A stretch of 48,644 bases of DNA from Escherichia coli (GTDB lineage Bacteria; Pseudomonadota; Gammaproteobacteria; Enterobacterales; Enterobacteriaceae): NCBI RefSeq assembly GCF_016903815.1, contig NZ_CP069971.1; one strand, given 5' to 3'. The translations under genes and the position numbers were made by a program. The notes beneath the pieces were generated by a model, which made no database searches, was not told where the DNA came from, and saw only the letters and a list, made by a program, of their open reading frames with translations. Below are positions 12,868 to 48,260 of this stretch, in pieces. Position 1 is the stretch's first letter; every line of letters starts with the position of its first letter.

Positions 12868-13848
12868 TTAATGTTGGAGTGATTTCCAGGTCTTTCTTAG
12901 CCTGTTATAACGCTGCTCAACGAGGGAGCGTAAATATGCAAGGTCAGCACCAGGATACATGCCATCAGCAAATTCCTGGCTAACCTCTCTAGTGATTTGA
13001 TGACGAAGTTCGGCCTCTCCCTTTTCCTGAACAAGACGCGCAGCTCTCTCCGCTGCTTTCTGTTTTGCCTTTATCTCTCTGGCCGTCTTCCTCTGACGCC
13101 ATACATTCTCCATCTGCTCCTGAATAACAATACGCTTATAATCAGCCTCCGTTATCGCTTTTTTAAGCCGTTCGCTATTCTTCGCATTGAAGTAATTAAG
13201 TTTCTGGCTAACCGCACGTCTCCATGCTTGTTCAGTAATACCAACTGTTTCCAGCAGTTGATCACGAATCTCGATTTTCGCTGGCCAATACTGTTTATTC
13301 ACCCGATCCCAGCGACGTTCATAATCAATAAAACCTAACTCTTTCAGTTGCGACAACGCCCTTGTACAGCGCGTTATAGACTTGTTCCCAGCTTCGGATA
13401 CGGTAGACAGGCCGCAAAAATCAGCCAACGCCTCAGCACTGGCCAGAACCCGCTTAGAAATGATGTTTACATGGTGCAAAATCGCAGCAATCACAGCATT
13501 AATCGCCCGACGACGATGCTCGTTTATCCGGCGTTTCCGCTCTGACGGTTGATTAACGTAGAACGCAACCTCACACGTAAGATCACGACCATTAATGCGC
13601 TGTAAAGCATCAGATAACACCAGCGGCAGCTTGTGCGTATGGTGCTTTGGAGGCTGGAACTCCGGCGACAAATTACAAACGTAAGCTGAACGTAGAGACG
13701 GCATTGGTCTATCCATATGTTCGCTCTTGCGTCCACGGAAAACCAACGTATAATGGGAGTTGTCGAGGCGCCCATGGATTGTTGTTGTTGGTTTTCCGTG
13801 GATGTCGCAAGAAGCCCGCAGATTTATCTGCGGGCTTTTTGTTTCCAT
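12868..13848 (-). CDS. repA: replication initiator RepA (IncFII RepA-like); may include a leader ORF, with an alternative internal start near 13716
   Basis: ...CGLSTVSEAGNKSITRCTRALSQLKELGFIDYERR... resembles the conserved core of IncFII RepA1 (recalled, not searched). Confidence 0.65.
   Translation of the reverse strand: METKSPQINLRASCDIHGKPTTTIHGRLDNSHYTLVFRGRKSEHMDRPMPSLRSAYVCNLSPEFQPPKHHTHKLPLVLSDALQRINGRDLTCEVAFYVNQPSERKRRINEHRRRAINAVIAAILHHVNIISKRVLASAEALADFCGLSTVSEAGNKSITRCTRALSQLKELGFIDYERRWDRVNKQYWPAKIEIRDQLLETVGITEQAWRRAVSQKLNYFNAKNSERLKKAITEADYKRIVIQEQMENVWRQRKTAREIKAKQKAAERAARLVQEKGEAELRHQITREVSQEFADGMYPGADLAYLRSLVEQRYNRLRKTWKSLQH
13762..13840 (+). ncRNA. CopA-like antisense RNA opposite the repA 5' region (putative)
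   Basis: Plus-strand promoter TTGCGT (13727-13732), 16-nt spacer, TATAAT (13749-13754); terminator AGCCCGCAGAT..ATCTGCGGGCT + T-run at 13813-13840, antisense to the first repA codons and RBS. Confidence 0.5.
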
Positions 13849-18903: not shown

Positions 18904-20020
18904 CCTCTACCCCCGCATACTGGCAATTTATATTTCTCTCTCTGGCGACCTGCGTCTCTCCAACTACAGTAAATACAGGACTTGATATTTCTAATCTTTT
19001 AGCCCCAGCATTTTTTAAACGTTGAATAATTTCATCTGGATTTATATCTCTTCCCATAACCGAACGTTGCCATTGTTTATACTCATCAAGAGCTTTCTCA
19101 ACCTCACTTTGAATTAACGTTGTTCTGTTTTTGTCCGATGAGTTAATCCAGTATTTAATTATTATATCGTATTCAATGCTATCTGGTTTCTTAACAAGAA
19201 CTTTATCTGTGAATGGTCGAATATTAGTTGCAGAGAGAACGCTATTTATCTGCTCTAATAGTTCATCAGAAGGTATATCTCCGTTCTCTAACAAAGAACG
19301 GATTTCTACAGTTCCGGGCGATGGTGTATATACATTCACATCTTTTATATTCTGATTGGCTGTTCTTGTCCAATATTTATAAGAATCCTCCGGCCCTGCT
19401 GTAGACAGTTTTTCCGGCGACAGTTTTATTCTTTCAGCATAATTATCATCTGACTCTGTATCAGCACCAGAATTAGATGTTGTTAGATTCCTTACGCTGG
19501 AAACATACGGCAACGGAGTCACCAACTCGTTTATTTGCCCAGGTAAAAAGCCATTCCCCGATAAGCCAGGTATAACAGCATATCCTGAGACTGTACCAAC
19601 TGTTTTCCCAGCTGGTATTTCCAACAAAACATCTGTTTGGAAAATAACACTATTTCCAGTTGAAATTTGAGTGCCAGCAGGTATTGTATATATCCCCGAT
19701 AATTTTGTTGACAGATTAAACTCAAATGTAGTCAAGGCAGATTGAGCTTCCAGCCTGGGCGTATCCGTCAGATAGCCTATATGGTCGAGATATTCACCCC
19801 CACCATATGTAAGAAGGTTTTGTTTTGCAGAAAAATCGATAGCTTTTCTTTGCTGTATAATAATCTCACACAATGACAAGATGAATAATCTACGTGGATC
19901 AGCAGGTGCTAATGTTTCACCTGTTATACTCTCAAAAGCCCTGATTGAACGAGTTGTTATATCAGTCGGGTTAGAATCTGCGAAAGTAATATCTGGCAAA
20001 CCACCGCGCGGCAACGTCAT
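18896..20020 (-). CDS. baseplate assembly protein J-like
   Basis: 374 aa; position and size match between the gp25/W-like and gpI-like genes. Confidence 0.7.
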   Translation of the reverse strand: MTLPRGGLPDITFADSNPTDITTRSIRAFESITGETLAPADPRRLFILSLCEIIIQQRKAIDFSAKQNLLTYGGGEYLDHIGYLTDTPRLEAQSALTTFEFNLSTKLSGIYTIPAGTQISTGNSVIFQTDVLLEIPAGKTVGTVSGYAVIPGLSGNGFLPGQINELVTPLPYVSSVRNLTTSNSGADTESDDNYAERIKLSPEKLSTAGPEDSYKYWTRTANQNIKDVNVYTPSPGTVEIRSLLENGDIPSDELLEQINSVLSATNIRPFTDKVLVKKPDSIEYDIIIKYWINSSDKNRTTLIQSEVEKALDEYKQWQRSVMGRDINPDEIIQRLKNAGAKRLEISSPVFTVVGETQVARERNINCQYAGVEDG

Positions 20021-20337
20021 TCTCTAACTCCTATCACAAGTTTTGGCCTAATAAAACCATCAGAAACGTCCGTTCTTTCAAAAGTAACAGAATGGATAAT
20101 CGCTCTAGGCTCAAACTCACTAATTTTTTGAATTATTTCTCGTGTTGCTGTAGCAATAAAAATTGGGCTGGGGCTATCAACAAGACTTGAATTAACTCCT
20201 AATTTTCTGGCATATGGTACAGTGCCAATCTGAGTATTAATAATAGTAGAGACATTTTGCAAAACTTCTTCTACAACTGTTTTTGGCGACCAATCAATCG
20301 AGTAAGAAGGTGATGATATGGTAAACGTATTATTCAT
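20017..20337 (-). CDS. baseplate wedge protein (gp25/gpW-like)
   Basis: 106 aa; ...YARKLGVNSSLVDSPSP...ISEFEPRAII... Confidence 0.65.
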   Translation of the reverse strand: MNNTFTISSPSYSIDWSPKTVVEEVLQNVSTIINTQIGTVPYARKLGVNSSLVDSPSPIFIATATREIIQKISEFEPRAIIHSVTFERTDVSDGFIRPKLVIGVRE

Positions 20338-20801
20338 AATAATTTACCTAACGCACTTCTGGTTTTTGACTCTATATTGCCAGCAATATCAACTAATGCT
20401 TCTTTCAGAGAGGTCTGTCCGACTTCCTGTAATTTAATGCCGACGATAATCACTCGTGGATTCCCAGTTGGACCGAAATAAGTCCATGATTCCTCTATAT
20501 CTGTAATTATAAAATTACCAAAATACTGAATACCAATTACAACAGGATTTACTTCCTGAATTGATTGCATTGTCCTAAGTAATGAAAGCGCAGCCAATGG
20601 AACAATGCCAAGTGTTGTATCCAACCGCATATTAAAACTAACTTCATCCAGATCTGGACCTATATCCTCCAGAACAGGTTTAAGCCCAATAACATCATGG
20701 CGCGCTACACGACGCTTTGACGTCCTTTTAAAATTGTTGAACGTATTCACCACTATTGATGAGGCAACAAAAGGCATTGTACCAAGCATACCCACAATCA
20801 T
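20334..20801 (-). CDS. baseplate-associated protein (Mu gp46-like position)
   Basis: 155 aa between the spike and gp25-like genes. Confidence 0.45.
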   Translation of the reverse strand: MIVGMLGTMPFVASSIVVNTFNNFKRTSKRRVARHDVIGLKPVLEDIGPDLDEVSFNMRLDTTLGIVPLAALSLLRTMQSIQEVNPVVIGIQYFGNFIITDIEESWTYFGPTGNPRVIIVGIKLQEVGQTSLKEALVDIAGNIESKTRSALGKLL

Positions 20802-21418
20802 GCCTGAGCCTCCGTTGTCGGAGCGTATTCCCCCTGAGCTGTGTGATGGTGGCCTTTAGATTTAATCCCATCAACATCTATATCACCACCAACAACCTTA
20901 ACATCCCCAGAAATTGTAGCTGCAACACCTCCAGCAGAAGATCCTTTCATTCCACCTTTGAAGGTTAGTAATCCTTCAACTGTAGCATTTCCGGTAATGA
21001 TGGTTTCTGGAGCATCAATAGTTACGGTTCCTGTAGCCTTAACGGTTACATCTCCGACAGCATCAACAAGGAGTAAATTAGATTCTCTGTCTACCTCAAT
21101 ACGAGTTCCGTTATTAAATCTAATGACGCGTTTATTAACAGTATTAGATGGCGGCTTCTGTGTTTCATCATAAAAACTACCAAGAATAAAACCTTGTTGC
21201 GGCCCTGCGGGATGAAAGATACACAAAACTTGCTCACCAATATCTGGCATCCAGTAATCAGCATTCTTATCCGTATTTTTCACAATAACTGATAACTTTG
21301 CCGAAGTGACGTTATCCTGATCATCGAAAGTAACTCTTGCTGTAACATCACCATCATCAATATCAGAAACAACGCCAACTCTTATAGTCTGACGTAATAA
21401 TGTTTCTAAATCATTCAT
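20798..21418 (-). CDS. baseplate spike/hub protein (gpV-like)
   Basis: 206 aa; ...KLSVIVKNTDKNADYWMPDIGEQVLCIF... Confidence 0.7.
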   Translation of the reverse strand: MNDLETLLRQTIRVGVVSDIDDGDVTARVTFDDQDNVTSAKLSVIVKNTDKNADYWMPDIGEQVLCIFHPAGPQQGFILGSFYDETQKPPSNTVNKRVIRFNNGTRIEVDRESNLLLVDAVGDVTVKATGTVTIDAPETIITGNATVEGLLTFKGGMKGSSAGGVAATISGDVKVVGGDIDVDGIKSKGHHHTAQGEYAPTTEAQA

Positions 21419-21420
21419 AA

Positions 21421-22422
21421 TTAATACCCATTAATTACTCTTCGGACATCAATCGAGGTGGTATAACCACTAGCCCCAATTGAATGCACAGCTTTCGATA
21501 TAAGATATTTTCCAGAAAATGAACCGAATCTGTCCAGATTTATAGTTACACCAGCTACCAATCTGGTGTCTCCAACCAATACTAAAGATCCTGTATTTTG
21601 ATATCTATTTTTAAGCCGCAAAGCAGCCTTTGCCTTACGTTTTGCTTCATCTAAATTAGCTACCAGTTTTCTTATCTTAAGATTCGACCCTTCTTCTACG
21701 GATGGATCTACCCAAGTATACGAAAGCGACTTTCTTTTTTTAGGTACGCGATATTTGCACGTGCAACTTTTATACAAATCTGTAGATTGTGTGCTAAAGC
21801 TATATCTGATTATCTCATCAATACCTAACGTAAGCGTAGCGATAGGATCTTTTTGCTCAAACATCTCTTGAGCAAATATTATTAATTGGCTATCAGTGAC
21901 CTTTAACGACAACCCTTCATCCTGGCAAAGTCGATGGAGAAATTTTAAATCGCTTTCCTCCATTTGATCTTCACGCGCATAATATGGATTACTATCACCA
22001 TCAATAAGAAACAACAGTTCAAGGTTAGCTAATTTAGCTATAGAGGTTGCTATATCTTTAAGAGTTGTTTTTTCCCATGCATTACTTTTTAAATCACGTC
22101 TAATGCCTGATGAAACAGGAACAGAAACAGCAGTCACCTCAACAACAGAAGGTGGTCCAGAGCAAGTTATGCCATCTACCTGGAATTTCCCGCACTCAAG
22201 GACGATTTGATTTATAGGCTTAAAGCTCAAATCAATAAAATCACCCTTTTTAGGTGTCCAGTCTCCAGACCATTTCCCATCATCATTTTTTAATATAATA
22301 GAAATATCATCGACCTGACCATCTTCATTATCTGTATAAGACATTGACAAAACATCAGGTGACATATGAGCGGTAATATTTACATTCTGATATATAACAT
22401 CAAAAAGCGTTTTACGTAACAC
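21421..22422 (-). CDS. tail protein D-like (late control gpD family, baseplate hub)
   Basis: 333 aa; C-terminal ...SKAVHSIGASGYTTSIDVRR. Confidence 0.7.
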   Translation of the reverse strand: MLRKTLFDVIYQNVNITAHMSPDVLSMSYTDNEDGQVDDISIILKNDDGKWSGDWTPKKGDFIDLSFKPINQIVLECGKFQVDGITCSGPPSVVEVTAVSVPVSSGIRRDLKSNAWEKTTLKDIATSIAKLANLELLFLIDGDSNPYYAREDQMEESDLKFLHRLCQDEGLSLKVTDSQLIIFAQEMFEQKDPIATLTLGIDEIIRYSFSTQSTDLYKSCTCKYRVPKKRKSLSYTWVDPSVEEGSNLKIRKLVANLDEAKRKAKAALRLKNRYQNTGSLVLVGDTRLVAGVTINLDRFGSFSGKYLISKAVHSIGASGYTTSIDVRRVINGY

Positions 22423-22630
22423 TATTGCGTCTCCAAGGAGGCAAATTGTTTACTGATATTGGCATAACCGGAGCATCAGGAACTTTAAGAATAATTCCCG
22501 CAGAAAAAAGCACCGTAAAGCGGTGCTCAGTATTAGCATCAATAAGAAGATAAGACAGGTACTCATTACCATACAACTTTAACGCGATACTATCCCATGA
22601 GTCCCCTTGAACCGTTCTATAATCATCCAA
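22412..22630 (-). CDS. tail protein X-like (LysM-like)
   Basis: 72 aa; MDDYRTVQGDSWDSIALKLYGNE... Confidence 0.7.
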   Translation of the reverse strand: MDDYRTVQGDSWDSIALKLYGNEYLSYLLIDANTEHRFTVLFSAGIILKVPDAPVMPISVNNLPPWRRNSVT

Positions 22631-25415
22631 AACTTAATCTCCGTTGTTGGAACATATGAGCACTCAATTTCTTCTCAAAATCAGAATATCCCGCATCTAA
22701 TGCTCTTTTAGCTGCCGCCTCAGTTTCCTTTGGTGAACCAGCCGGAAGATTGATTACAGGTGAATAGGTTATTCCACCAGTCACAGCATTAACGTTCTGG
22801 CGAGGTCCAGAAGTCCCGGCGGCAGATATCCCGTGAGGTGATAAATTTGATTGCCCGAACTTGGTTGCTATTGCATTCTGTAAGCTGTTATTCCTGCTAA
22901 CGCCTGATGCCAGAGTAGTCATTATTGCACCACCTGACTTTGTTAGCTGTGAGAATGGACCTTTTTTCGCGTCAGAGAACGGTAAATACTCACGTACAGA
23001 AGAAAAAACGCCTTTCACTTCATTAATTAAAGCATTTGCTTTTGATTTTATCCCAGTGATTAACGTCTCAATTATTTTTGCGCCTGACTCACTCCAGTTT
23101 ATTCCAGACAAATAAGCCGTTACAGATTGGAATGCTCTTATAAAGAGTCCAACTGGTGAAAAACGCATAAAAACAGATACCAGTGTATCTATGATTTTCT
23201 TTCCTGTTTCGCTCCAGTTAATACCAGAAAGGTAATTTATTGTAAGTTTAAATGCTTTAATTAAGAACGGAAGCGGAGACATCCATTTAAAAGCACTAAT
23301 TAATGTACTGTAAATTCTTACTCCTGCCGAACTCCAGTTTATGTTGGAAAGATAATCCCATGCTTTACCAAACATAGATATAATCCATCCATTGAGATCA
23401 AAGTTTAAGATAAAGTTTTTTATAGCTTCAAACGATTTAACTGTATATTCCTTAACAGAAGGCCAAACTCTGACAGCATAATCTCTGATCTTATCCCAGT
23501 TCTGATAGAGCAATATTCCTGCGGCAACCAGCGCAGATATAGCCATCTGAATCCACCCGAAGGGTGTTAGCTTTGTCGCTACAGATAAAGCCAGCATAGC
23601 TACCCTACACGCTATAACCACACTTTTCATGGTTAGAAACGCACCTGCCGCCATCACAATCTGAGACACAAAATTGGGGTTGTTAGCTACAAATTCACTA
23701 ATTTTTGTAATCAGCGGAACCAAAACACTAAGCGCGGCATTCAAAGCAGGTTGCAAGGCCTGACCAAAACTTAATGATGCATTGCTAGCCTGAATACGTA
23801 ATTGTTTCAATCGCTCCGCATTGTCTTTCGTTATGTTGGCAAAATCGCGGTCAATAACAGCACTTCCAGCACCAAGAGATGTTGCTTTGATTCTCTGGTA
23901 TTCCTTCCAGTTTTGAATCATCGGACGAACAAAGTTCTGAACCTGCATATCGCCAAATAGCTCACCAAGTAACTTCTGATCTCCGTTCTTAGTCATTTTC
24001 ATGACAGAATGCATTGCAGCTTCGAATGGATTCTTCCCTTTTTTCTGCGCTGTTGTGACAATTTTATATAAATCTACACCGAAATTTTTCTTTGCTTTTT
24101 TTAGTGTTTCAGGGGAAAGTATTTTCGCCAAAAAGTTGTTCATATTATTAGCAGCCTCATCCGAAGTTGCAGCACCTTTGCGAGCTATCTGCAAAGCTGC
24201 CCCCATCGTCGCGGCGGCTTCTTTACCTCCCATTTTTAATGCCTGGAACTGGGCACCAAGCACAGGAAGATTTTTGGCCATATCTTTAAATTCAAAGTTT
24301 CCCTCTTTCCCTGCCTGAACCAGAATCCCCATTGCAGACTTCATTTGAGATGGATCAATCTTCAATGAGTCACTTAATGTAAATGATGCTTTCGAGACAT
24401 CGAGGATATCAGAGCCAGTAGCTGTAGCTGTTCGCCCAATAGTTAGTAGATTCGCCTGAGCCTCTTTATAATCCTGCCCAGCAGCGACGAGAAAACCCTG
24501 AGCAGCCTGAATATCAGATGCAAACTGGTTGGTAGCCGTTCCGGTAACAAGCATCGCCTGCCCCATCGCCTGAACTTCTTCCGGCTTCATATCTGCCGTA
24601 AGACCAATCATTTTGTTTTCACGATTGAAATTTGCTGCATTGTTAGCAGCAGCAAATGCACCAGCCGCTACAGCACCAGTTTGTAATCCTGACCTTACAA
24701 GTTGACTCTTTGCCTCACCAAGATGCTCTCGCTTCAATTCACGCTGCCTTTCCAACGCGCGGTTTAACTCCTCCTGAGCACGTTTTACTGCAAGAACATT
24801 TTTCCGTGCTTCAGCCAACGCATTTTTATAGCTGTTAATTTTATCAATACGTTGTTTTTCTAATGCCCGGTTAAGTTCCTCCTGCTGTTTTTTCACTTGC
24901 TGAACATTTGCTCTGGCTAAAGCCAAAGCCGTTCTGTAGCGGTTAACCTGCTCAACGCTACGGACCTGAGCCTCACGATTACGATCAATGCTGGCTTTAA
25001 GCTCTTTCTCTCTTGAGGCCAAAGCTCTGGCAGATGTATCAGCTCCCTGATAGGCAGACTTTAAAGCGGCCAGTTCTTCACGCTGAGAACGTAGTGATGC
25101 TCGTAAATTCGATGAATGTGTTTTTGCCTTCTCAAAGTCACGAAGCATCGCTCTGGTTGGATTGGCCGTGTTTTTTATTTGCTTCTGTAACTCTTCAACG
25201 CGAGCGGCAGCTTTATGATATTCGAGGGCAGTCTGTCCAACCTTTACTTTTACAGATTGTAGCTTTTGAATTTCCCCATGTTCTTTCGTTAATCCAGCAA
25301 GCTCGGCATTTAATTTAGCAACAGCCTGATTAGCTGTAGTAAAACTTTTGGGGAGAGAGGCGGCAACTTTGCCGCCAATTTCAAAAGCCAGCTTAAAGTT
25401 CTTATTGCTGGCCAT
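22623..25415 (-). CDS. tail tape measure protein
   Basis: 930 aa; coiled-coil N-terminal half, hydrophobic middle segments. Confidence 0.85.
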   Translation of the reverse strand: MASNKNFKLAFEIGGKVAASLPKSFTTANQAVAKLNAELAGLTKEHGEIQKLQSVKVKVGQTALEYHKAAARVEELQKQIKNTANPTRAMLRDFEKAKTHSSNLRASLRSQREELAALKSAYQGADTSARALASREKELKASIDRNREAQVRSVEQVNRYRTALALARANVQQVKKQQEELNRALEKQRIDKINSYKNALAEARKNVLAVKRAQEELNRALERQRELKREHLGEAKSQLVRSGLQTGAVAAGAFAAANNAANFNRENKMIGLTADMKPEEVQAMGQAMLVTGTATNQFASDIQAAQGFLVAAGQDYKEAQANLLTIGRTATATGSDILDVSKASFTLSDSLKIDPSQMKSAMGILVQAGKEGNFEFKDMAKNLPVLGAQFQALKMGGKEAAATMGAALQIARKGAATSDEAANNMNNFLAKILSPETLKKAKKNFGVDLYKIVTTAQKKGKNPFEAAMHSVMKMTKNGDQKLLGELFGDMQVQNFVRPMIQNWKEYQRIKATSLGAGSAVIDRDFANITKDNAERLKQLRIQASNASLSFGQALQPALNAALSVLVPLITKISEFVANNPNFVSQIVMAAGAFLTMKSVVIACRVAMLALSVATKLTPFGWIQMAISALVAAGILLYQNWDKIRDYAVRVWPSVKEYTVKSFEAIKNFILNFDLNGWIISMFGKAWDYLSNINWSSAGVRIYSTLISAFKWMSPLPFLIKAFKLTINYLSGINWSETGKKIIDTLVSVFMRFSPVGLFIRAFQSVTAYLSGINWSESGAKIIETLITGIKSKANALINEVKGVFSSVREYLPFSDAKKGPFSQLTKSGGAIMTTLASGVSRNNSLQNAIATKFGQSNLSPHGISAAGTSGPRQNVNAVTGGITYSPVINLPAGSPKETEAAAKRALDAGYSDFEKKLSAHMFQQRRLSFG

Positions 25416-25420
25416 TAGTA

Positions 25421-25603
25421 TTAATCCTCATTAAACACATCAATCCATGCGACGATTCGCCTCAACCGAAGCGAAAGCCAGTAGGATATAGGTGTTGATT
25501 GAGATGATTGAGATAGAGAACTCGCGGCCCTCATTATTTGCTTATCAATAGGTTTTTGCTCATCAAAACCTACGAGAGCAAAAAATTCTGTACCTTTTGA
25601 CAA
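25421..25603 (-). CDS. frameshift extension of the tail assembly chaperone (E+E'-like product via -1 shift)
   Basis: Overlapping ORF in the -1 frame; the slippery site TTTTTTG (minus strand, plus-strand A6 at 25580-25585) links the two frames. Confidence 0.55.
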   Translation of the reverse strand: MSKGTEFFALVGFDEQKPIDKQIMRAASSLSQSSQSTPISYWLSLRLRRIVAWIDVFNED

Positions 25604-25851
25604 ACTTTAACAAAGTCTTTCGCTGGCAATCCATTCAGATACTCTATTGGACGGCCAATACAGCGAGCAGCCAAGGCTGCATGGACTTTATTATCAAGTG
25701 ATGTTTGAACTGAAACATGCCCTTGAGATTGCAGTAAGTCCGATACCTCTAAAATATCACTGCCTTTTAGGTTGTCTAAATCAAGGTTGAGTTCAGTCAC
25801 CGGCTCAAAGTCTTCAAAACGATATTCTTTACTTAATTTAACAGTTTCCAT
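25570..25851 (-). CDS. tail assembly chaperone (gpE-like)
   Basis: 93 aa, immediately upstream of the tape measure gene; ends in a T6 slippery run. Confidence 0.65.
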   Translation of the reverse strand: METVKLSKEYRFEDFEPVTELNLDLDNLKGSDILEVSDLLQSQGHVSVQTSLDNKVHAALAARCIGRPIEYLNGLPAKDFVKVCQKVQNFLLS

Positions 25852-25860
25852 TTTGTCACC

Positions 25861-26382
25861 TTATAAACCTAAATCATCACGAACGCTTTTTAATATATCT
25901 TCACCATCAAAGATACAAATAAAGTTCAACTTATCAATTTCCAGGACTTCTTTTCCATCAATAAATAATTTGATATAGAGAACTTCAAATTCATTCTCTG
26001 AATCAGTAGCCTTTGCCACCTGTAGCGAACCTAAATCCAGTTTCTTAGGGTTTAGCTTCATTGAAGCCCGAATAGGAACCGTTTTATATTTTCCTGTTCC
26101 TGCATCATAAACCTGCTGGCTACCGCGAAAATCTACCTGATGCGATGAGGATAGAAATAATTTTGTACCAGCAGAGGTAAGAGTTCGCCATTTAAGAGAG
26201 ACAGTCATTGGTTTGAAATGCCCCAGAGTTCCGCTCTCAAGCTCTCCAGCGATACCTGCACCACTAACAGTTTCTGTCATCATCTCAATTGATGGCAGCT
26301 TTGCGTCAGCAACACCGATAATACGGTTTCCCTCACCGTATACTGTAAAGTTAATAAGTCTCTCAGGAATTTGATTGCTCAA
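25861..26382 (-). CDS. tail tube protein
   Basis: 173 aa; downstream of the sheath gene. Confidence 0.75.
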   Translation of the reverse strand: MSNQIPERLINFTVYGEGNRIIGVADAKLPSIEMMTETVSGAGIAGELESGTLGHFKPMTVSLKWRTLTSAGTKLFLSSSHQVDFRGSQQVYDAGTGKYKTVPIRASMKLNPKKLDLGSLQVAKATDSENEFEVLYIKLFIDGKEVLEIDKLNFICIFDGEDILKSVRDDLGL

Positions 26383-26398
26383 AGCAACCTCCTATTAT

Positions 26399-27862
26399 TT
26401 ATTCAGAAAACAAGTTCAGCAGATAATCAGGATTATATTCCATGACGAACTCTATATCTCTGGCAGGTGAGAATGGTGTCATTTTTACATGGAATTTAAC
26501 AATCCCGTCCATCAATGACGTAATCGTGTTTTCAGACTGATCAAAGGTAACAACACCACCTGCAATATCCTGATTACCTGTGAGGCCGTTAAGCCAAATA
26601 TTCGCACTTGTAACAATCGATTCAATTAATCGACGGTTTGCAGGATTGTCTATTTTTGACCAATGCGAAAGAATTAACGTATTACCCACCCAGTTAAACA
26701 TACGTCGGCAAACACGAAATGCGTCTTTGGGGTCTGTAGATGTTGGATAAATAGCATTACGGTTTCCCCATGATTTCCAACCATCAAAATTAAGGCTTGT
26801 TACAATCCCCTGTCCATTTAAGTAGTTTGCCTGGCTAATGTTAAGCCATACTTCACTGCCATCTTTACGTACAGCACCGTCCATCTGTAGTTTTATATTT
26901 GACGGAGAACGTGATGGAATATCACCATACTGACTATCCAGCAAGCATGTTGCGGCCGCTAAATGGGTTGAGTGATGGTAAATATTGTCACCAAGTTTCA
27001 CCATCGGCCAGCACACTGTCTGGTTAGCGGCCATGTGATTATTGTTCTGTTTCCATTCAGGAACAGCCGAGTAATCACTGATAGTAGATTTATCGGTCGG
27101 TGCATCAGTTATGGCTTCTGCTTTGAACAATTCACTAATCAACGCGGCTTTAGCCGCCATTAGCTGACCAACTTCACTATCAGAACTAAATCCAGGCGCA
27201 ATCACTTGTCCAGGAACCAACTTGAAGCGGGGATACACATCAGACAGTAACTCAAGCCCTGTATTGGCTTTAGTGTTGGAATCCACACCACCGATAATGT
27301 CATTTTTAGTTACGGCACCGGGATCAAGATGCGTATAACTAACCTTAAGAGTAGCGTCTTTTTCGGTAATTTTTCCTCCGCTAATAGCGGTAATGACCGT
27401 ATAGCCATTATCATCCAGCGCCAGCACATAATCGGTATCAACCGTTAATCCTGCAGAATCACCATCTGCTTTTTTCACAACAACAGATTTATATAAGACA
27501 CCATCGTTAGAGAGCGTACCTTTCCCGCCAGAAAGTTTTACTACCTCATCAGTTACGTCTTTCTTATGCTTTGCTGGATCAAGCACATTGATAAATACAA
27601 CTGGCGCAACACCATATATTCCAAATGCGACTTTAATTACTTCGCTTAAAGTATATTTCTCGAAGTTTGTGCTATATCCTATTTTAGATACGGCCTCTGC
27701 GTATGTATAAGCAATGATAGGTTTATTTACCGCTGAGGCTGGATCTTCCAACTGATTAACAGGAGCTGTACCAAATGCGACAATCAACCCAGCACTAACT
27801 TGTACTGGAGGAGTTATATATGTAGCCAGCTCAGATATATAAATACCGTGGCGATATCCCAT
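26399..27862 (-). CDS. tail sheath protein
   Basis: 487 aa; MGYRHGIYISELATYITPP... typical contractile-sheath start. Confidence 0.85.
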   Translation of the reverse strand: MGYRHGIYISELATYITPPVQVSAGLIVAFGTAPVNQLEDPASAVNKPIIAYTYAEAVSKIGYSTNFEKYTLSEVIKVAFGIYGVAPVVFINVLDPAKHKKDVTDEVVKLSGGKGTLSNDGVLYKSVVVKKADGDSAGLTVDTDYVLALDDNGYTVITAISGGKITEKDATLKVSYTHLDPGAVTKNDIIGGVDSNTKANTGLELLSDVYPRFKLVPGQVIAPGFSSDSEVGQLMAAKAALISELFKAEAITDAPTDKSTISDYSAVPEWKQNNNHMAANQTVCWPMVKLGDNIYHHSTHLAAATCLLDSQYGDIPSRSPSNIKLQMDGAVRKDGSEVWLNISQANYLNGQGIVTSLNFDGWKSWGNRNAIYPTSTDPKDAFRVCRRMFNWVGNTLILSHWSKIDNPANRRLIESIVTSANIWLNGLTGNQDIAGGVVTFDQSENTITSLMDGIVKFHVKMTPFSPARDIEFVMEYNPDYLLNLFSE

Positions 27863-28152
27863 TATTTAATCTCCATGATAGAAGAAGAAACTCTAGAGTA
27901 CATTACATACTCGACACTGGTTTTATCAGAAAGTCTTTTTTCTGCATCTGCAAAATCACTGGTTGCCACAAACAAACACTTTGCACCAGGAATATGTGAT
28001 ATTAATTTTTCACACTCTGGAGATAAGCCATTCTTAAATAGTTTATGCTTCAAAATTGAGAGTTGAGGGATTGTTGGTCCTATATATACAAATGTTTGAG
28101 CAACATCTTCCTTCTTTTCTATATCTTCTTTACTACTTTTCTTATTAGACAT
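27862..28152 (-). CDS. hypothetical protein
   Basis: 96 aa ORF coupled to neighbours. Confidence 0.4.
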   Translation of the reverse strand: MSNKKSSKEDIEKKEDVAQTFVYIGPTIPQLSILKHKLFKNGLSPECEKLISHIPGAKCLFVATSDFADAEKRLSDKTSVEYVMYSRVSSSIMEIK

Positions 28153-28638
28153 TTAGATAAACTCCTGAGACTGAATATTCTGAGGCTTTAATACTAGCCA
28201 CGTTCCAGTTGCTTCCGTTATCCAATATGGATATGGTTGATCATCAAACATTCGCCATCTGATATCACCCTGAAAGAGAAATTTCTCTTCAAGTAAAGGC
28301 TTCTCCTGGAAATGAAACATCATCCTTTCAAGAAGAGCCATTACCCATTCATATCCAGTATGGTCCTCACAAAAACCACCTAGAAGAAACTTAACCTTAA
28401 CTTCATCCGTTTCAGGCTGCATTCCTCCTTCCGTTGGTCTGATAATCACATGAGGAAATTCTGGCGATTTATCTGGAGATGGTTGTGATTTAGGAGGCAA
28501 GTACCCTTTAAATATTGTTGGAACAAACAATTTAATATCGCTGTCTGTTTCATCATAAGGAGGCCCCTGCACTAATAAATCATGGAAAACCTCATGTTCC
28601 AACCGATTTTTTATTGCATCTATCAAAAGATTAATCAA
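28153..28638 (-). CDS. putative neck/tail completion protein
   Basis: 161 aa; position between head and tail modules. Confidence 0.4.
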   Translation of the reverse strand: MINLLIDAIKNRLEHEVFHDLLVQGPPYDETDSDIKLFVPTIFKGYLPPKSQPSPDKSPEFPHVIIRPTEGGMQPETDEVKVKFLLGGFCEDHTGYEWVMALLERMMFHFQEKPLLEEKFLFQGDIRWRMFDDQPYPYWITEATGTWLVLKPQNIQSQEFI

Positions 28639-28979
28639 ATCGGCATTCCTCTGTTAGTATTAACAGTGAGAGTTATTTCCAATACACCAACATTATCTGA
28701 TACTTCATCAACAATATAATTTTTACCGTTGATTTTCATTGACTGGTCTTTGACAGGGAGAACAGGAAAATCTTTTCTTGAAACAAATAATATTATTTGC
28801 CCCTGATTTATTCCCTCTGCAAACTCAGCATATGAGCGTTTATTACGCTCATGAATAAGGTCTGTATCAATAACGGCAAGGATATCCTTGCCGTCTATGT
28901 TATATGTATCGGCAAACTCTTTTTCATTGAGGAATATTGCAGAAATATCTTGCGCTATAACCTCTTTGAAGGAGTTCAT
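28635..28979 (-). CDS. putative head-tail connector/head completion protein
   Basis: 114 aa; position only. Confidence 0.4.
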   Translation of the reverse strand: MNSFKEVIAQDISAIFLNEKEFADTYNIDGKDILAVIDTDLIHERNKRSYAEFAEGINQGQIILFVSRKDFPVLPVKDQSMKINGKNYIVDEVSDNVGVLEITLTVNTNRGMPI

Positions 28980-29371
28980 TACTTCTTATTACCTTTTTTT
29001 TGTGTTGATTTTTTCGCATTACTGGTATCAGAAGTAGCTACAGATTCAGATGAATCATCAGCAACCATTTCCTCATTGCCGCCATCATCCTCAAACTCAA
29101 CCTCGAATACACAGCTACCCGCCTCCGTTCGCGTAATCAACCCCGCGTCCACAGCATCATTAACAGCAGATGCGTATCCATGCTCAAAAGCTAACTTAGC
29201 AGCATCATAGCCCCCAGCCGATGCCAAATCACCATCCTCTTCGGTGGCAATAGCATGTCCTGACGCAATCAGTTCGGCAATTCTGGAGTTATCCATTAGC
29301 CCATTAAGCAAACGGCCCGCTTTTAGCGAGCCGTGGCTTATCGTATCAATGTTTTTAATCAGTCTGGCCAT
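28979..29371 (-). CDS. hypothetical acidic protein downstream of the major capsid gene
   Basis: 130 aa. Confidence 0.4.
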   Translation of the reverse strand: MARLIKNIDTISHGSLKAGRLLNGLMDNSRIAELIASGHAIATEEDGDLASAGGYDAAKLAFEHGYASAVNDAVDAGLITRTEAGSCVFEVEFEDDGGNEEMVADDSSESVATSDTSNAKKSTQKKGNKK

Positions 29372-30415
29372 TTAAACCACCTTAGCCACCAGATAGGCAT
29401 CAGCCACACCAGGATTAGGCAGTGGAGATGACTTCATGGCAACATAACGGCCAGCCGGCTTACGAGTTACCCAGGTGTCTGGAACTCGTGGCGACTCAAC
29501 AATCGTTAGAGTCTTTTCGGCGTCATCTACAAGCTCTACAGCACCATACAGCATCGTTCCTCGACCAGGAGAGCCAAAGAGGATCTTATCTTCCGGTACT
29601 AATGGTTCTGGTTTTCCTGTTTTATCATTGCGAATAAGTTCGTCGTAACCATAAAAATCGACACCTTCAAGATTGCCATAATGAGTTACGCCTTCTTCTA
29701 ACTCCTTAGGCTCAATATACCCAAGCTCTTTTCGGCGATTATCAAGATATTTAGTTACTGCTTCATTTTTAACGAAGGCATCAACAACTTTTGCGCCCAT
29801 TACGGCAACACGAGGTGTAAAACCTGAAGTTAGTGATACCCGACGTTTCCAGTTGCGAACATTGACCAACGGATCTGATTTTGCTGCACTCCATAAATCA
29901 TCACCTGTCAGTTCAAGATATGGTTTATCTCCTTCCTCTTCAGGCCAAAAATAAACTGTGTCATCCACTCCTTCACCAACAATATCAACCTGCCCCGTAA
30001 ACAAGACTTGTGCACACATCCATTCTTCACGGCGGTTAACCATTTCATCAAGCTCAAGCAAATCTTTACCTAATTGCTCGGCGGCTCGTTCTGCTGGCGA
30101 TTTTGCGTTGTAAATATTCTCACCCGGAAGCCTGTTTAAAAGCAGCTCGGCTGTTGTTACCAAATCAGGTGCAACAAGTGGTGGCTCCAGAGTTCTCGTT
30201 ACAAAGCCGCGTCGCTCAACGGTTTTTGAGCCAAAACCTTTACCAACAAACGGAGCCATAGTACGGCCACCGCGAACAAAATCCAGATCAACTTTCTTTG
30301 TATTAAAGGTCTGAACACCAGGAAAAAAGGTACGAAGAAGAAAACGACGAGCCTTGAAATTCTGAATAACAGGCTCAAGCATTGTACGTCGTTCAAAAAT
30401 ATCAATATTCGGCAT
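29372..30415 (-). CDS. major capsid protein (lambda gpE-like)
   Basis: 347 aa; gene order decoration-capsid as in lambda. Confidence 0.75.
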   Translation of the reverse strand: MPNIDIFERRTMLEPVIQNFKARRFLLRTFFPGVQTFNTKKVDLDFVRGGRTMAPFVGKGFGSKTVERRGFVTRTLEPPLVAPDLVTTAELLLNRLPGENIYNAKSPAERAAEQLGKDLLELDEMVNRREEWMCAQVLFTGQVDIVGEGVDDTVYFWPEEEGDKPYLELTGDDLWSAAKSDPLVNVRNWKRRVSLTSGFTPRVAVMGAKVVDAFVKNEAVTKYLDNRRKELGYIEPKELEEGVTHYGNLEGVDFYGYDELIRNDKTGKPEPLVPEDKILFGSPGRGTMLYGAVELVDDAEKTLTIVESPRVPDTWVTRKPAGRYVAMKSSPLPNPGVADAYLVAKVV

Positions 30416-42883: not shown

Positions 42884-42959
42884 TGGTGGCCCCTACCGGA
42901 TTTGAACCGATGACCGTGCGATTATGAGTCGCCTGCTCTAACCACTGAGCTAAGGGGCC
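42884..42959 (-). tRNA. tRNA with CAU anticodon (Met or Ile2-type)
   Basis: 76 nt; GGCCCCTTAGCTCAGTGGTTAGAGCAGGCGACTCATAATCGCACGGTCATCGGTTCAAATCCGGTAGGGGCCACCA; cloverleaf folds by eye, encoded CCA end. Confidence 0.8.
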
Positions 42960-47595: not shown

Positions 47596-47961
47596 TCACT
47601 TCAACTCCTCCCGACGACGTTCCTGAAGCTCTAGCATTGCGGCTCGGAAATCCTGCCACCACTCCTCATCTGCAACGGGGGTGTTCCGCTCCAGCACCTT
47701 GTCCGCATCTGCGATCAGATTTGCCAGACTCTTGTCTGAAATCTTCGTTACCGGAGTCGTTGGTTGCTCAACCTGCCCGATAGGTTTTATCGTGCTCAAA
47801 AGGAGGCGACGGCTGGAAAGTGGCGACCCACAACGGCGCCCATCTTCCTTGCGATATGTTTCTTTCGGACCAACACACCAAGTTGTCGGCGTTTCGCGTA
47901 ACTTCACTTTTTTCTCACCATCAATGGTGATGATTATTCCGGTATGGGTTTTGATGCTCAT
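47596..47961 (-). CDS. hypothetical protein
   Basis: 121 aa ORF. Confidence 0.4.
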   Translation of the reverse strand: MSIKTHTGIIITIDGEKKVKLRETPTTWCVGPKETYRKEDGRRCGSPLSSRRLLLSTIKPIGQVEQPTTPVTKISDKSLANLIADADKVLERNTPVADEEWWQDFRAAMLELQERRREELK

Positions 47962-48260
47962 GCCACAGCCCCTCTCAACGGCTTAACTTTGGCTAATAAG
48001 GTGTTAAACAACATGGAGTTAGGGTTCATGCCAAATGGCAATTCCGGTTTAGCGGAGTAGTACAGGCAACCATTTATTTTCCTGGTTGTTATCTGTCCTT
48101 CGGCAACCATGCTTCTCAGTCTGCAACGCATAGAGTTCTGCGACACACCAATGTGCTCCGCGATTACGTCCACTTTTGAACATGGGTGATCGGTCAGGAA
48201 ATTAATCACATCTTGGGGGTTAATAATTTTGCGTTTCATTGTCGAGGCGTCCTTATACAT
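47958..48260 (-). CDS. putative winged-helix DNA-binding protein (PapI/FaeA-like)
   Basis: ...INFLTDHPCSKVDVIAEHIGVSQNSMRCRLRSMVAEGQITTRK... Confidence 0.4.
   Translation of the reverse strand: MYKDASTMKRKIINPQDVINFLTDHPCSKVDVIAEHIGVSQNSMRCRLRSMVAEGQITTRKINGCLYYSAKPELPFGMNPNSMLFNTLLAKVKPLRGAVA

Follow-up and report, generated by a model that had tools for sequence, protein, structure and literature searches.

In the DNA analysed here (the window, 48,644 nucleotides in its full length), a phage-plasmid with a contractile tail, the gene for the tail assembly chaperone most probably uses programmed −1 ribosomal frameshifting, a reading to which, on the sequence evidence, we assigned a probability of roughly 88%. 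A slippery heptamer lies in register at the end of the chaperone gene, the N-terminal part of the product belongs to a known chaperone family, the site is conserved among relatives, and the region downstream is under selection at the protein level in the −1 frame. Frameshifts of this kind are already known, the P2-type and lambda cases being textbook examples, and what is new is a lineage in which the frameshift is not annotated.

The chaperone gene was located on the minus strand (25851-25570) and encoded in the 0 frame a protein of 93 aa (10.4 kDa), the analogue of lambda G and P2 E. Its ATG at 25851 was preceded by AAGGTG, 5 nt upstream, and its 3' end read AAG GTA CAG AAT TTT TTG CTC TCG TAG. 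Within this end, the heptamer T TTT TTG (25585-25579, minus strand; gene nt 267-273) fell in the X XXY YYZ register on the 0-frame codons AAT TTT TTG, with the T6 run at 25585-25580 and the G at 25579. The TAG stop (25572-25570) followed two codons past the heptamer. The −1 frame was open from 25606 to a TAA at 25423-25421, the two frames overlapping over gene nt 246-282. Read after a slip, the −1 frame gave GCT CTC GTA GGT TTT GAT..., with the first GCT at 25579-25577, and continued for 52 codons before the TAA (25579-25421, minus strand; the putative T/E′ analogue). This continuation filled the 154-nt gap before the tape measure gene, its TAA lying 5 nt ahead of the tape measure ATG (25415). 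The predicted fusion, complement(join(25421..25579,25579..25851)), comprises 143 aa and 16.2 kDa. The sequence-only reading had placed the end of the 93-aa ORF just after a minus-strand TTTTTTG (A6 at 25580-25585 on the plus strand) and had proposed that an overlapping ORF continues in the −1 frame; the coordinates and the register proved correct, and the second ORF was open over its whole length as described.

We infer that the slip is ribosomal. Most ribosomes would translate the 93-aa chaperone and stop at the TAG, and a minority would slip back by 1 nt on the heptamer. By standard tandem slippage, the P-site tRNA-Phe would move from UUU to UUU and the A-site tRNA-Leu from UUG to UUU. The slipped ribosomes would then read GCU CUC GUA GGU... 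and add 52 residues, resulting in the predicted 143-aa fusion (…VQNFL-ALVGFDEQKPIDK…NED). The residue at the junction is a prediction that differs between mechanisms: the tryptic peptide VQNFLALVGFDEQKPIDK, with Leu91, would be expected from tandem ribosomal slippage, and the peptide VQNFFALVGFDEQKPIDK, with Phe91, from P-site-only or transcriptional slippage. The efficiency of the slip and the binding partners of the two products are likewise predicted. If the products work as those of lambda G/GT and P2 E/E+E′ do, the N-terminal part common to both would bind the tape measure protein, and the tube protein would be brought in by the extension; a fixed slippage rate would set the product ratio needed for tail assembly, and neither product would be present in the virion.

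The gene order around the chaperone was that of a contractile-tail module. On the minus strand, the ORF list gave a sheath gene (27862-26399), followed by the tail tube gene (26382-25861; 173 aa; PF04985 Phage_tube, 151 bits, E 3.5e-44) directly upstream of the chaperone gene. Downstream of the chaperone were the tape measure gene (25415-22623; 930 aa; PF10145 PhageMin_Tail, 75 bits), a gpX-like ORF with a TTG start (22630-22412; 72 aa; PF05489 Phage_tail_X), and a gpD-like ORF (22422-21421) taken from the ORF list and profile search. Two overlapping ORFs, the chaperone and the −1 ORF, thus lay between the tube and tape measure genes, as expected of a frameshift chaperone pair. A promoter and terminator scan of the stretch from the chaperone to the tape measure gene revealed nothing pointing to a separate transcription unit. 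Farther along the module, the gpX-like ORF matched PF05489 at 21.1 bits, slightly below the cut-off of 22, and overlapped its neighbours on both sides, the tape measure gene at its end and the gpD-like gene at its start. This ORF was present in the annotation of the phage records and absent from that of the RefSeq plasmid NZ_CP070136.1.

Relatives of the locus came from Citrobacter, Salmonella, Klebsiella, Hafnia, Enterobacter, and read-archive assemblies, with 69-77% protein identity. The heptamer was unchanged and in the same register in all of the loci L001-L018 as well as in Vibrio phage X29, Pararheinheimera phage KLER1-1, and P2, and it was invariant across 7 distinct enterobacterial lineages covering 69-95% protein identity. 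The codons flanking it varied, being AAT, AGT, or CGT before and CTC, CTG, CTA, or TTG after. In the chaperone genes of 8 diverged relatives, 14/88 third-codon positions were invariant, and given this rate the invariance of all three third positions of the heptamer (3/3) corresponded to roughly P ≈ 0.004. The terminal G of the heptamer was kept while the −1-frame residue that it begins varied between Ala, Val, and Glu, which points to constraint at the nucleotide level. Two database homologues of the chaperone, P0013 and P0018 (the latter from a 48,395-bp E. coli plasmid), were frameshifted versions with aberrant C-terminal sequences, which seem to be assembly or gene-calling artefacts and not biological variants. 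The start of the record NZ_CP158145.1 cut through the chaperone gene.

A fusion of the same length, with Phe for Leu at residue 91, would also be produced by transcriptional slippage, in which RNA polymerase adds an extra U on the T6/A6 run. The site is indeed a homopolymer run of six, and one inserted base yields the same −1-frame product. In bacteria, however, transcriptional slippage is usually efficient only on runs of about 8-9 or longer, and this counts against a T6 run. Slippage by the polymerase would moreover need neither the register nor the terminal G, yet both the X XXY YYZ arrangement and the G were invariant in every lineage, and at the identical P2 site the frameshift is described as translational (PMC3091744, citing Christie et al. 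2002). We consider transcriptional slippage very improbable, and a ribosomal slip the preferred reading.

The family assignment of the products was examined with profile searches. The 93-aa chaperone matched PF10109 (Phage_TAC_7) over profile positions 1-78 of 79 with 25.4 bits (E 1.5e-5), a marginal match given the gathering cut-off of 25 bits, and the 143-aa fusion scored 23.7 bits, under this cut-off. The corresponding scores of the relatives X29 and KLER1-1 were 29.1 and 30.4 bits. The family is described in Pfam as 'tail assembly chaperone proteins E, or 41 or 14', that is P2 E and Mu gp41. Against phrog_3140, a 'tail assembly chaperone' family, the 93-aa protein gave an E-value of 8.7e-43 and the fusion one of 2.4e-47, the score rising from 147.7 to 162.7 bits, and residues 1-137 of the fusion aligned unbroken over the junction with positions 128-262 of the profile. 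The extension alone matched phrog_30074, a family of no assigned function, at 1.2e-33. NCBIfam held no family for the fusion of the window, nor for that of P2.

The AlphaFold model of the fusion was confident (pLDDT 87.3, pTM 0.80). In BFVD, the model matched best a 147-aa protein (37% identity, E 1.1e-9) and a protein annotated as a tail assembly chaperone (E 2.9e-4); hits below significance included one named 'tape measure chaperone' (E 0.017) and one named 'chaperone frameshift protein' (E 0.32). Comparison of the model with the PDB by Foldseek gave no match at E ≤ 0.001, and a sequence search of the PDB gave no match.

These matches also bear on whether the −1 ORF might be a separate small gene, translated from its own TTG start at 25603 into a free 60-aa protein with no frameshift. 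The ORF list holds such a 60-aa ORF with a TTG start (25603-25421), and phrog_30074 is the PHROGs family of stand-alone calls of the −1 ORF. Continuous alignment of the fusion, both with phrog_3140 and with the joined CDS annotated in X29, argues for one product instead, and a separate gene would leave the invariant in-register heptamer unexplained. The TTG at 25603 was the only candidate start, there being no ATG in the open −1 stretch; it had no Shine-Dalgarno sequence upstream and was replaced by CTG in three of the relatives (L009, L010, and L012). Independent initiation of the −1 ORF thus appeared unlikely from the sequences compared, and we see only a slim chance that the extension is made as a protein of its own.

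We further analysed whether the frame entered by the predicted ribosomal slip was maintained as coding sequence. The −1 frame was open for 52-59 codons in all enterobacterial relatives with full sequence; the sequence of one locus (L017) ends just past the 0-frame stop. The length of the extension and its motif TP(I/V)(S/P)YW were retained down to about 30% identity. Upstream of the heptamer, the numbers of variable columns at 0-frame codon positions 1, 2, and 3 were 40, 22, and 74, and downstream they were 16, 42, and 29, so that the most variable codon position switched at the heptamer, the second 0-frame position being the third of the −1 frame. Past the heptamer, pairwise dN/dS was 0.12-0.23 in the −1 frame, compared with 0.96-2.1 in the 0 frame and more than 2.6 in the +1 frame, and the −1-frame values stayed low across a synonymous divergence reaching about 2 substitutions per site. 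Low dN/dS in the −1 frame only indicated that the region is translated in that frame and is under purifying selection. The sequence-only reading had named a second ORF lacking conservation in related phages as part of what would speak against a frameshift; the −1 ORF was instead found to be conserved and selected in its own frame.

The TAG stop of the chaperone and the following G (TAGG, 25572-25569, minus strand) were also invariant in all of the enterobacterial relatives and in X29. This invariance arises because the −1 frame reads (G/A)TA GGN (Val/Ile-Gly) at these positions, the position of the 0-frame stop being fixed by the overlapping frame.

The heptamer was then compared with what the window would offer by chance. 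The string TTTTTTG was not enriched in the window, with 17 copies versus 22.6 ± 4.3 in shuffles, and the argument for the site therefore rests on its register, position, and conservation rather than on its frequency. Within the 82 putative genes of the window there were 68 in-register X XXY YYZ heptamers. The chaperone site had the longest −1 continuation of the 68 (52 codons), and its −1 frame extended furthest beyond the 0-frame stop (149 nt). The runner-up, a TTTTTTC at 47908-47914 on the plus strand, had a −1 continuation of 48 codons. Its ORF (47681-47986) runs across ORFs on the minus strand (47596-47961 and 47958-48260) and is unlikely to be a genuine gene. That the open −1 frame has no function and is left over, for instance, from an old frameshift mutation in a longer gene, with only the 93-aa protein being of importance, would fit the public records, which annotate the 93-aa gene alone, and a heptamer string common in an AT-rich window, but the −1-frame dN/dS at such divergence, the kept length and motif, and the rank of the site among the 68 leave this reading a negligible chance, and the selection analysis effectively refuted it.

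A close known counterpart in arrangement was E/E+E′ in the FETUD operon of P2, for which facts were taken from the P2 RefSeq annotation and PMC3091744. P2 carries the same heptamer, T TTT TTG, in the same register (AAG GTG GTC GGT TTT TTG), and in both P2 and the window it follows the same chaperone C-terminal motif, K-V-x-x-F-L. Both chaperones matched PF10109, P2 E at 47.8 and the window chaperone at 25.4 bits, and both genes lie between an FII-type tube gene (PF04985) and a tape measure gene. The sizes of the products are nearly equal (91/142 aa in P2 and 93/143 aa in the window). The −1 frameshift at T TTT TTG is annotated in P2, whereas the five phage records and the 12 plasmid records listed among the matches of the window carry no such annotation. 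The 0-frame stop follows the heptamer after 6 codons in P2 and after 2 codons in the window, and the P2 E′ ORF overlaps the start of the T gene by 8 nt, whereas the −1 ORF of the window stops 5 nt before the tape measure ATG.

The two fusions differed in their extensions. BLASTP detected no similarity between the fusion of P2 and that of the window, and P2 E′ matched PF06528 (Phage_P2_GpE) at 76.3 bits, whereas the extension of the window had no match to this family. Searching three extension sequences with the PF06528 profile gave no match at E ≤ 10, and hhalign comparison of the extension alignment with the GpE alignment was not significant (probability 0.8%, E 0.073, 17 columns). MAFFT lined up FL-A-x-(V/L)-G … P … P-x-S … L-x-x-L-x-x-W of the window fusion with P2, which is a hint only. 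With the Pfam scan and the profile-profile comparison both negative, homology of the extension to P2 E′ was dropped. The extension has no detectable PF06528 membership, and the pair is therefore E/E′-type in architecture and mechanism and not a P2 E′ orthologue by sequence. The earlier description of a classical E/E′-type arrangement upstream of the tape measure gene accordingly held for the position, chaperone family, heptamer, and register, and did not extend to the family of the extension.

The site also occurred in two phages more distant than the enterobacterial relatives. In Vibrio phage X29 (RefSeq NC_024369.2), the equivalent product is annotated as a joined CDS, YP_009091831.1 'lambda gpGT analog', next to the gpG analogue YP_009043921.1. 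The X29 fusion matched phrog_3140 at 6.1e-77, compared with 2.4e-47 for the window fusion, and the extensions of both belonged to phrog_30074. X29 has the same heptamer and register as the window and its TAG stop at the same offset. The host of X29 is Vibrio, and the identities to the window were 44% for the chaperone part and about 25% for the extension, where the motif TPIPYW corresponded to TPISYW of the window. Pararheinheimera phage KLER1-1, at about 30% identity, likewise had the same heptamer in the same register. Both phages have extensions of 57 codons with the motif TPIPYW(L/M)(S/T)(L/M)PL, compared with TPISYWLSLRL in the window.

Frameshifting tail assembly chaperone pairs as a class, including lambda G/GT and P2 E/E+E′, were reportedly described by Xu, Hendrix and Duda in 2004. 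Lambda differs from the window in its heptamer (G GGA AAG) and in the family of its chaperone, and its tail is non-contractile. Its likeness to the window is one of the logic of the arrangement, with no sequence relationship claimed. In lambda, G and GT are two products from one start, the −1 slip taking place shortly before the chaperone gene ends and upstream of the tape measure gene; tails assemble only if G and GT are made in a fixed ratio, and the major tail protein is bound by the T part (PMC5009743). Tandem ribosomal slippage has been described for both P2 and lambda (PMC3091744; PMC5009743). Phage Mu gp41 belongs to PF10109 by the Pfam description and, like the window chaperone, is encoded between the tube and tape measure genes. 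The annotated length of Mu gp41 is 144 aa, and in Mu about 144 nt ahead of the tape measure gene are without annotation.

Elements that might stimulate the slip were searched for on both sides of the heptamer. Downstream, folding gave a local hairpin of 9 bp (25575-25545, minus strand; core UAGGUUUU / AAAACCUA) that starts 6 nt after the heptamer. The hairpin was not significant, with z = −1.69 and 12/200 shuffles folding as well, and in per-locus folds it was found in the window and the close relative L007 and was not conserved in more distant relatives. The RNAalifold consensus of the relatives (−5.0 kcal/mol, covariation term 0.1) contained no conserved downstream structure, and an Rfam search gave no family, a chance match to mir-2 being below its threshold. 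A conserved stem-loop of the dnaX type, 5-9 nt after the heptamer, was not found among the relatives. A downstream stimulatory RNA was rejected as a defined part of the mechanism, the hairpin being neither significant nor conserved and having no Rfam family. Since P2-type sites are reported to be without downstream stimulatory structures (PMC3091744), the missing conserved structure counts only weakly against the frameshift reading.

Upstream of the heptamer, a Shine-Dalgarno-like AAGGT on the Lys-Val codons (25596-25592, minus strand) was identified from the sequence, the relatives, and the codon table. It lies exactly 6 nt upstream of the heptamer, and 'GGT' is equally distant in all relatives, X29, KLER1-1, and P2. 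The third base of the Lys/Arg/Ala codon before GGT was an invariant G. The (A)AGGT(G) coincides with a conserved Lys/Arg/Ala-Val pair, and its conservation could simply reflect the conserved K-V residues. For dnaX, the optimal spacing of the upstream Shine-Dalgarno sequence has been reported as 10-14 nt, and the 6 nt of AAGGT is shorter. From the comparison of relatives, we raise as a doubtful suggestion that (A)AGGU(G) may be conserved for pairing with the anti-Shine-Dalgarno sequence and may tune the rate of frameshifting instead of a downstream structure, and that the phrog_30074 extension may form a domain family of its own, distinct from P2 GpE and attached at the same slip site.

By its plasmid matches together with a full myovirus module, the window is a phage-plasmid. 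The stretch 20000-30000 was 95-100% identical to E. coli plasmids with sizes of about 48-50 kb, and in the best match, NZ_CP070136.1, which is plasmid unnamed4 of E. coli FDAARGOS_1281, genes for RepA, ParA, and a RelE/ParE toxin(-antitoxin) adjoined a complete myovirus module. An ORF of the window at 12868-13848 (minus strand) sits at the position of repA in this plasmid. Of 5,426 complete E. coli genomes, 70 had the chaperone region, in every case on a plasmid and in none on the chromosome. Over 25300-26000, a DNA identity of 97-99% was found to the Yersinia phages vB_YpM_39, vB_YpM_41, and vB_YpM_44 and to the E. coli phages vB_EcoM-613R2 and vB_EcoM-473R2. The pSLy3 phage-plasmid group was considered as the home of the element and no link was found, pSLy3 being described within the SSU5 supercommunity of SSU5-related elements. 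The single tRNA gene of the window (42884-42959, minus strand; anticodon CAT) was named tRNA-Met by ARAGORN, and PGAP named its counterpart in NZ_CP070136.1 tRNA-Ile; the latter naming would imply a lysidine-modified anticodon.

The public records of this lineage carry the chaperone and not the fusion. In the records of the 5 related phages, the 143-aa fusion was absent, and the features under the match were the short chaperone ORF, mostly as 'hypothetical protein', and its neighbours; the two of these records that were inspected annotated the 93-aa ORF alone. The frameshift product was also absent from all 12 RefSeq E. coli plasmid records among the matches listed, in which the features under the match were a short 'phage tail assembly protein', tube proteins, and tape measure proteins, one partial match having a hypothetical protein and a tape measure protein.

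The main value of the finding is for annotation, and no new biological question is opened by it. A joined CDS would close the 154-nt 'non-coding' gap and complete the gene set of the tail module. Beyond this element, very diverged myovirus lineages still carry T TTT TTG behind the K-V-x-x-F-L end of their TAC_7 chaperones, including lineages in which the extension after the slip site has lost recognisable similarity.
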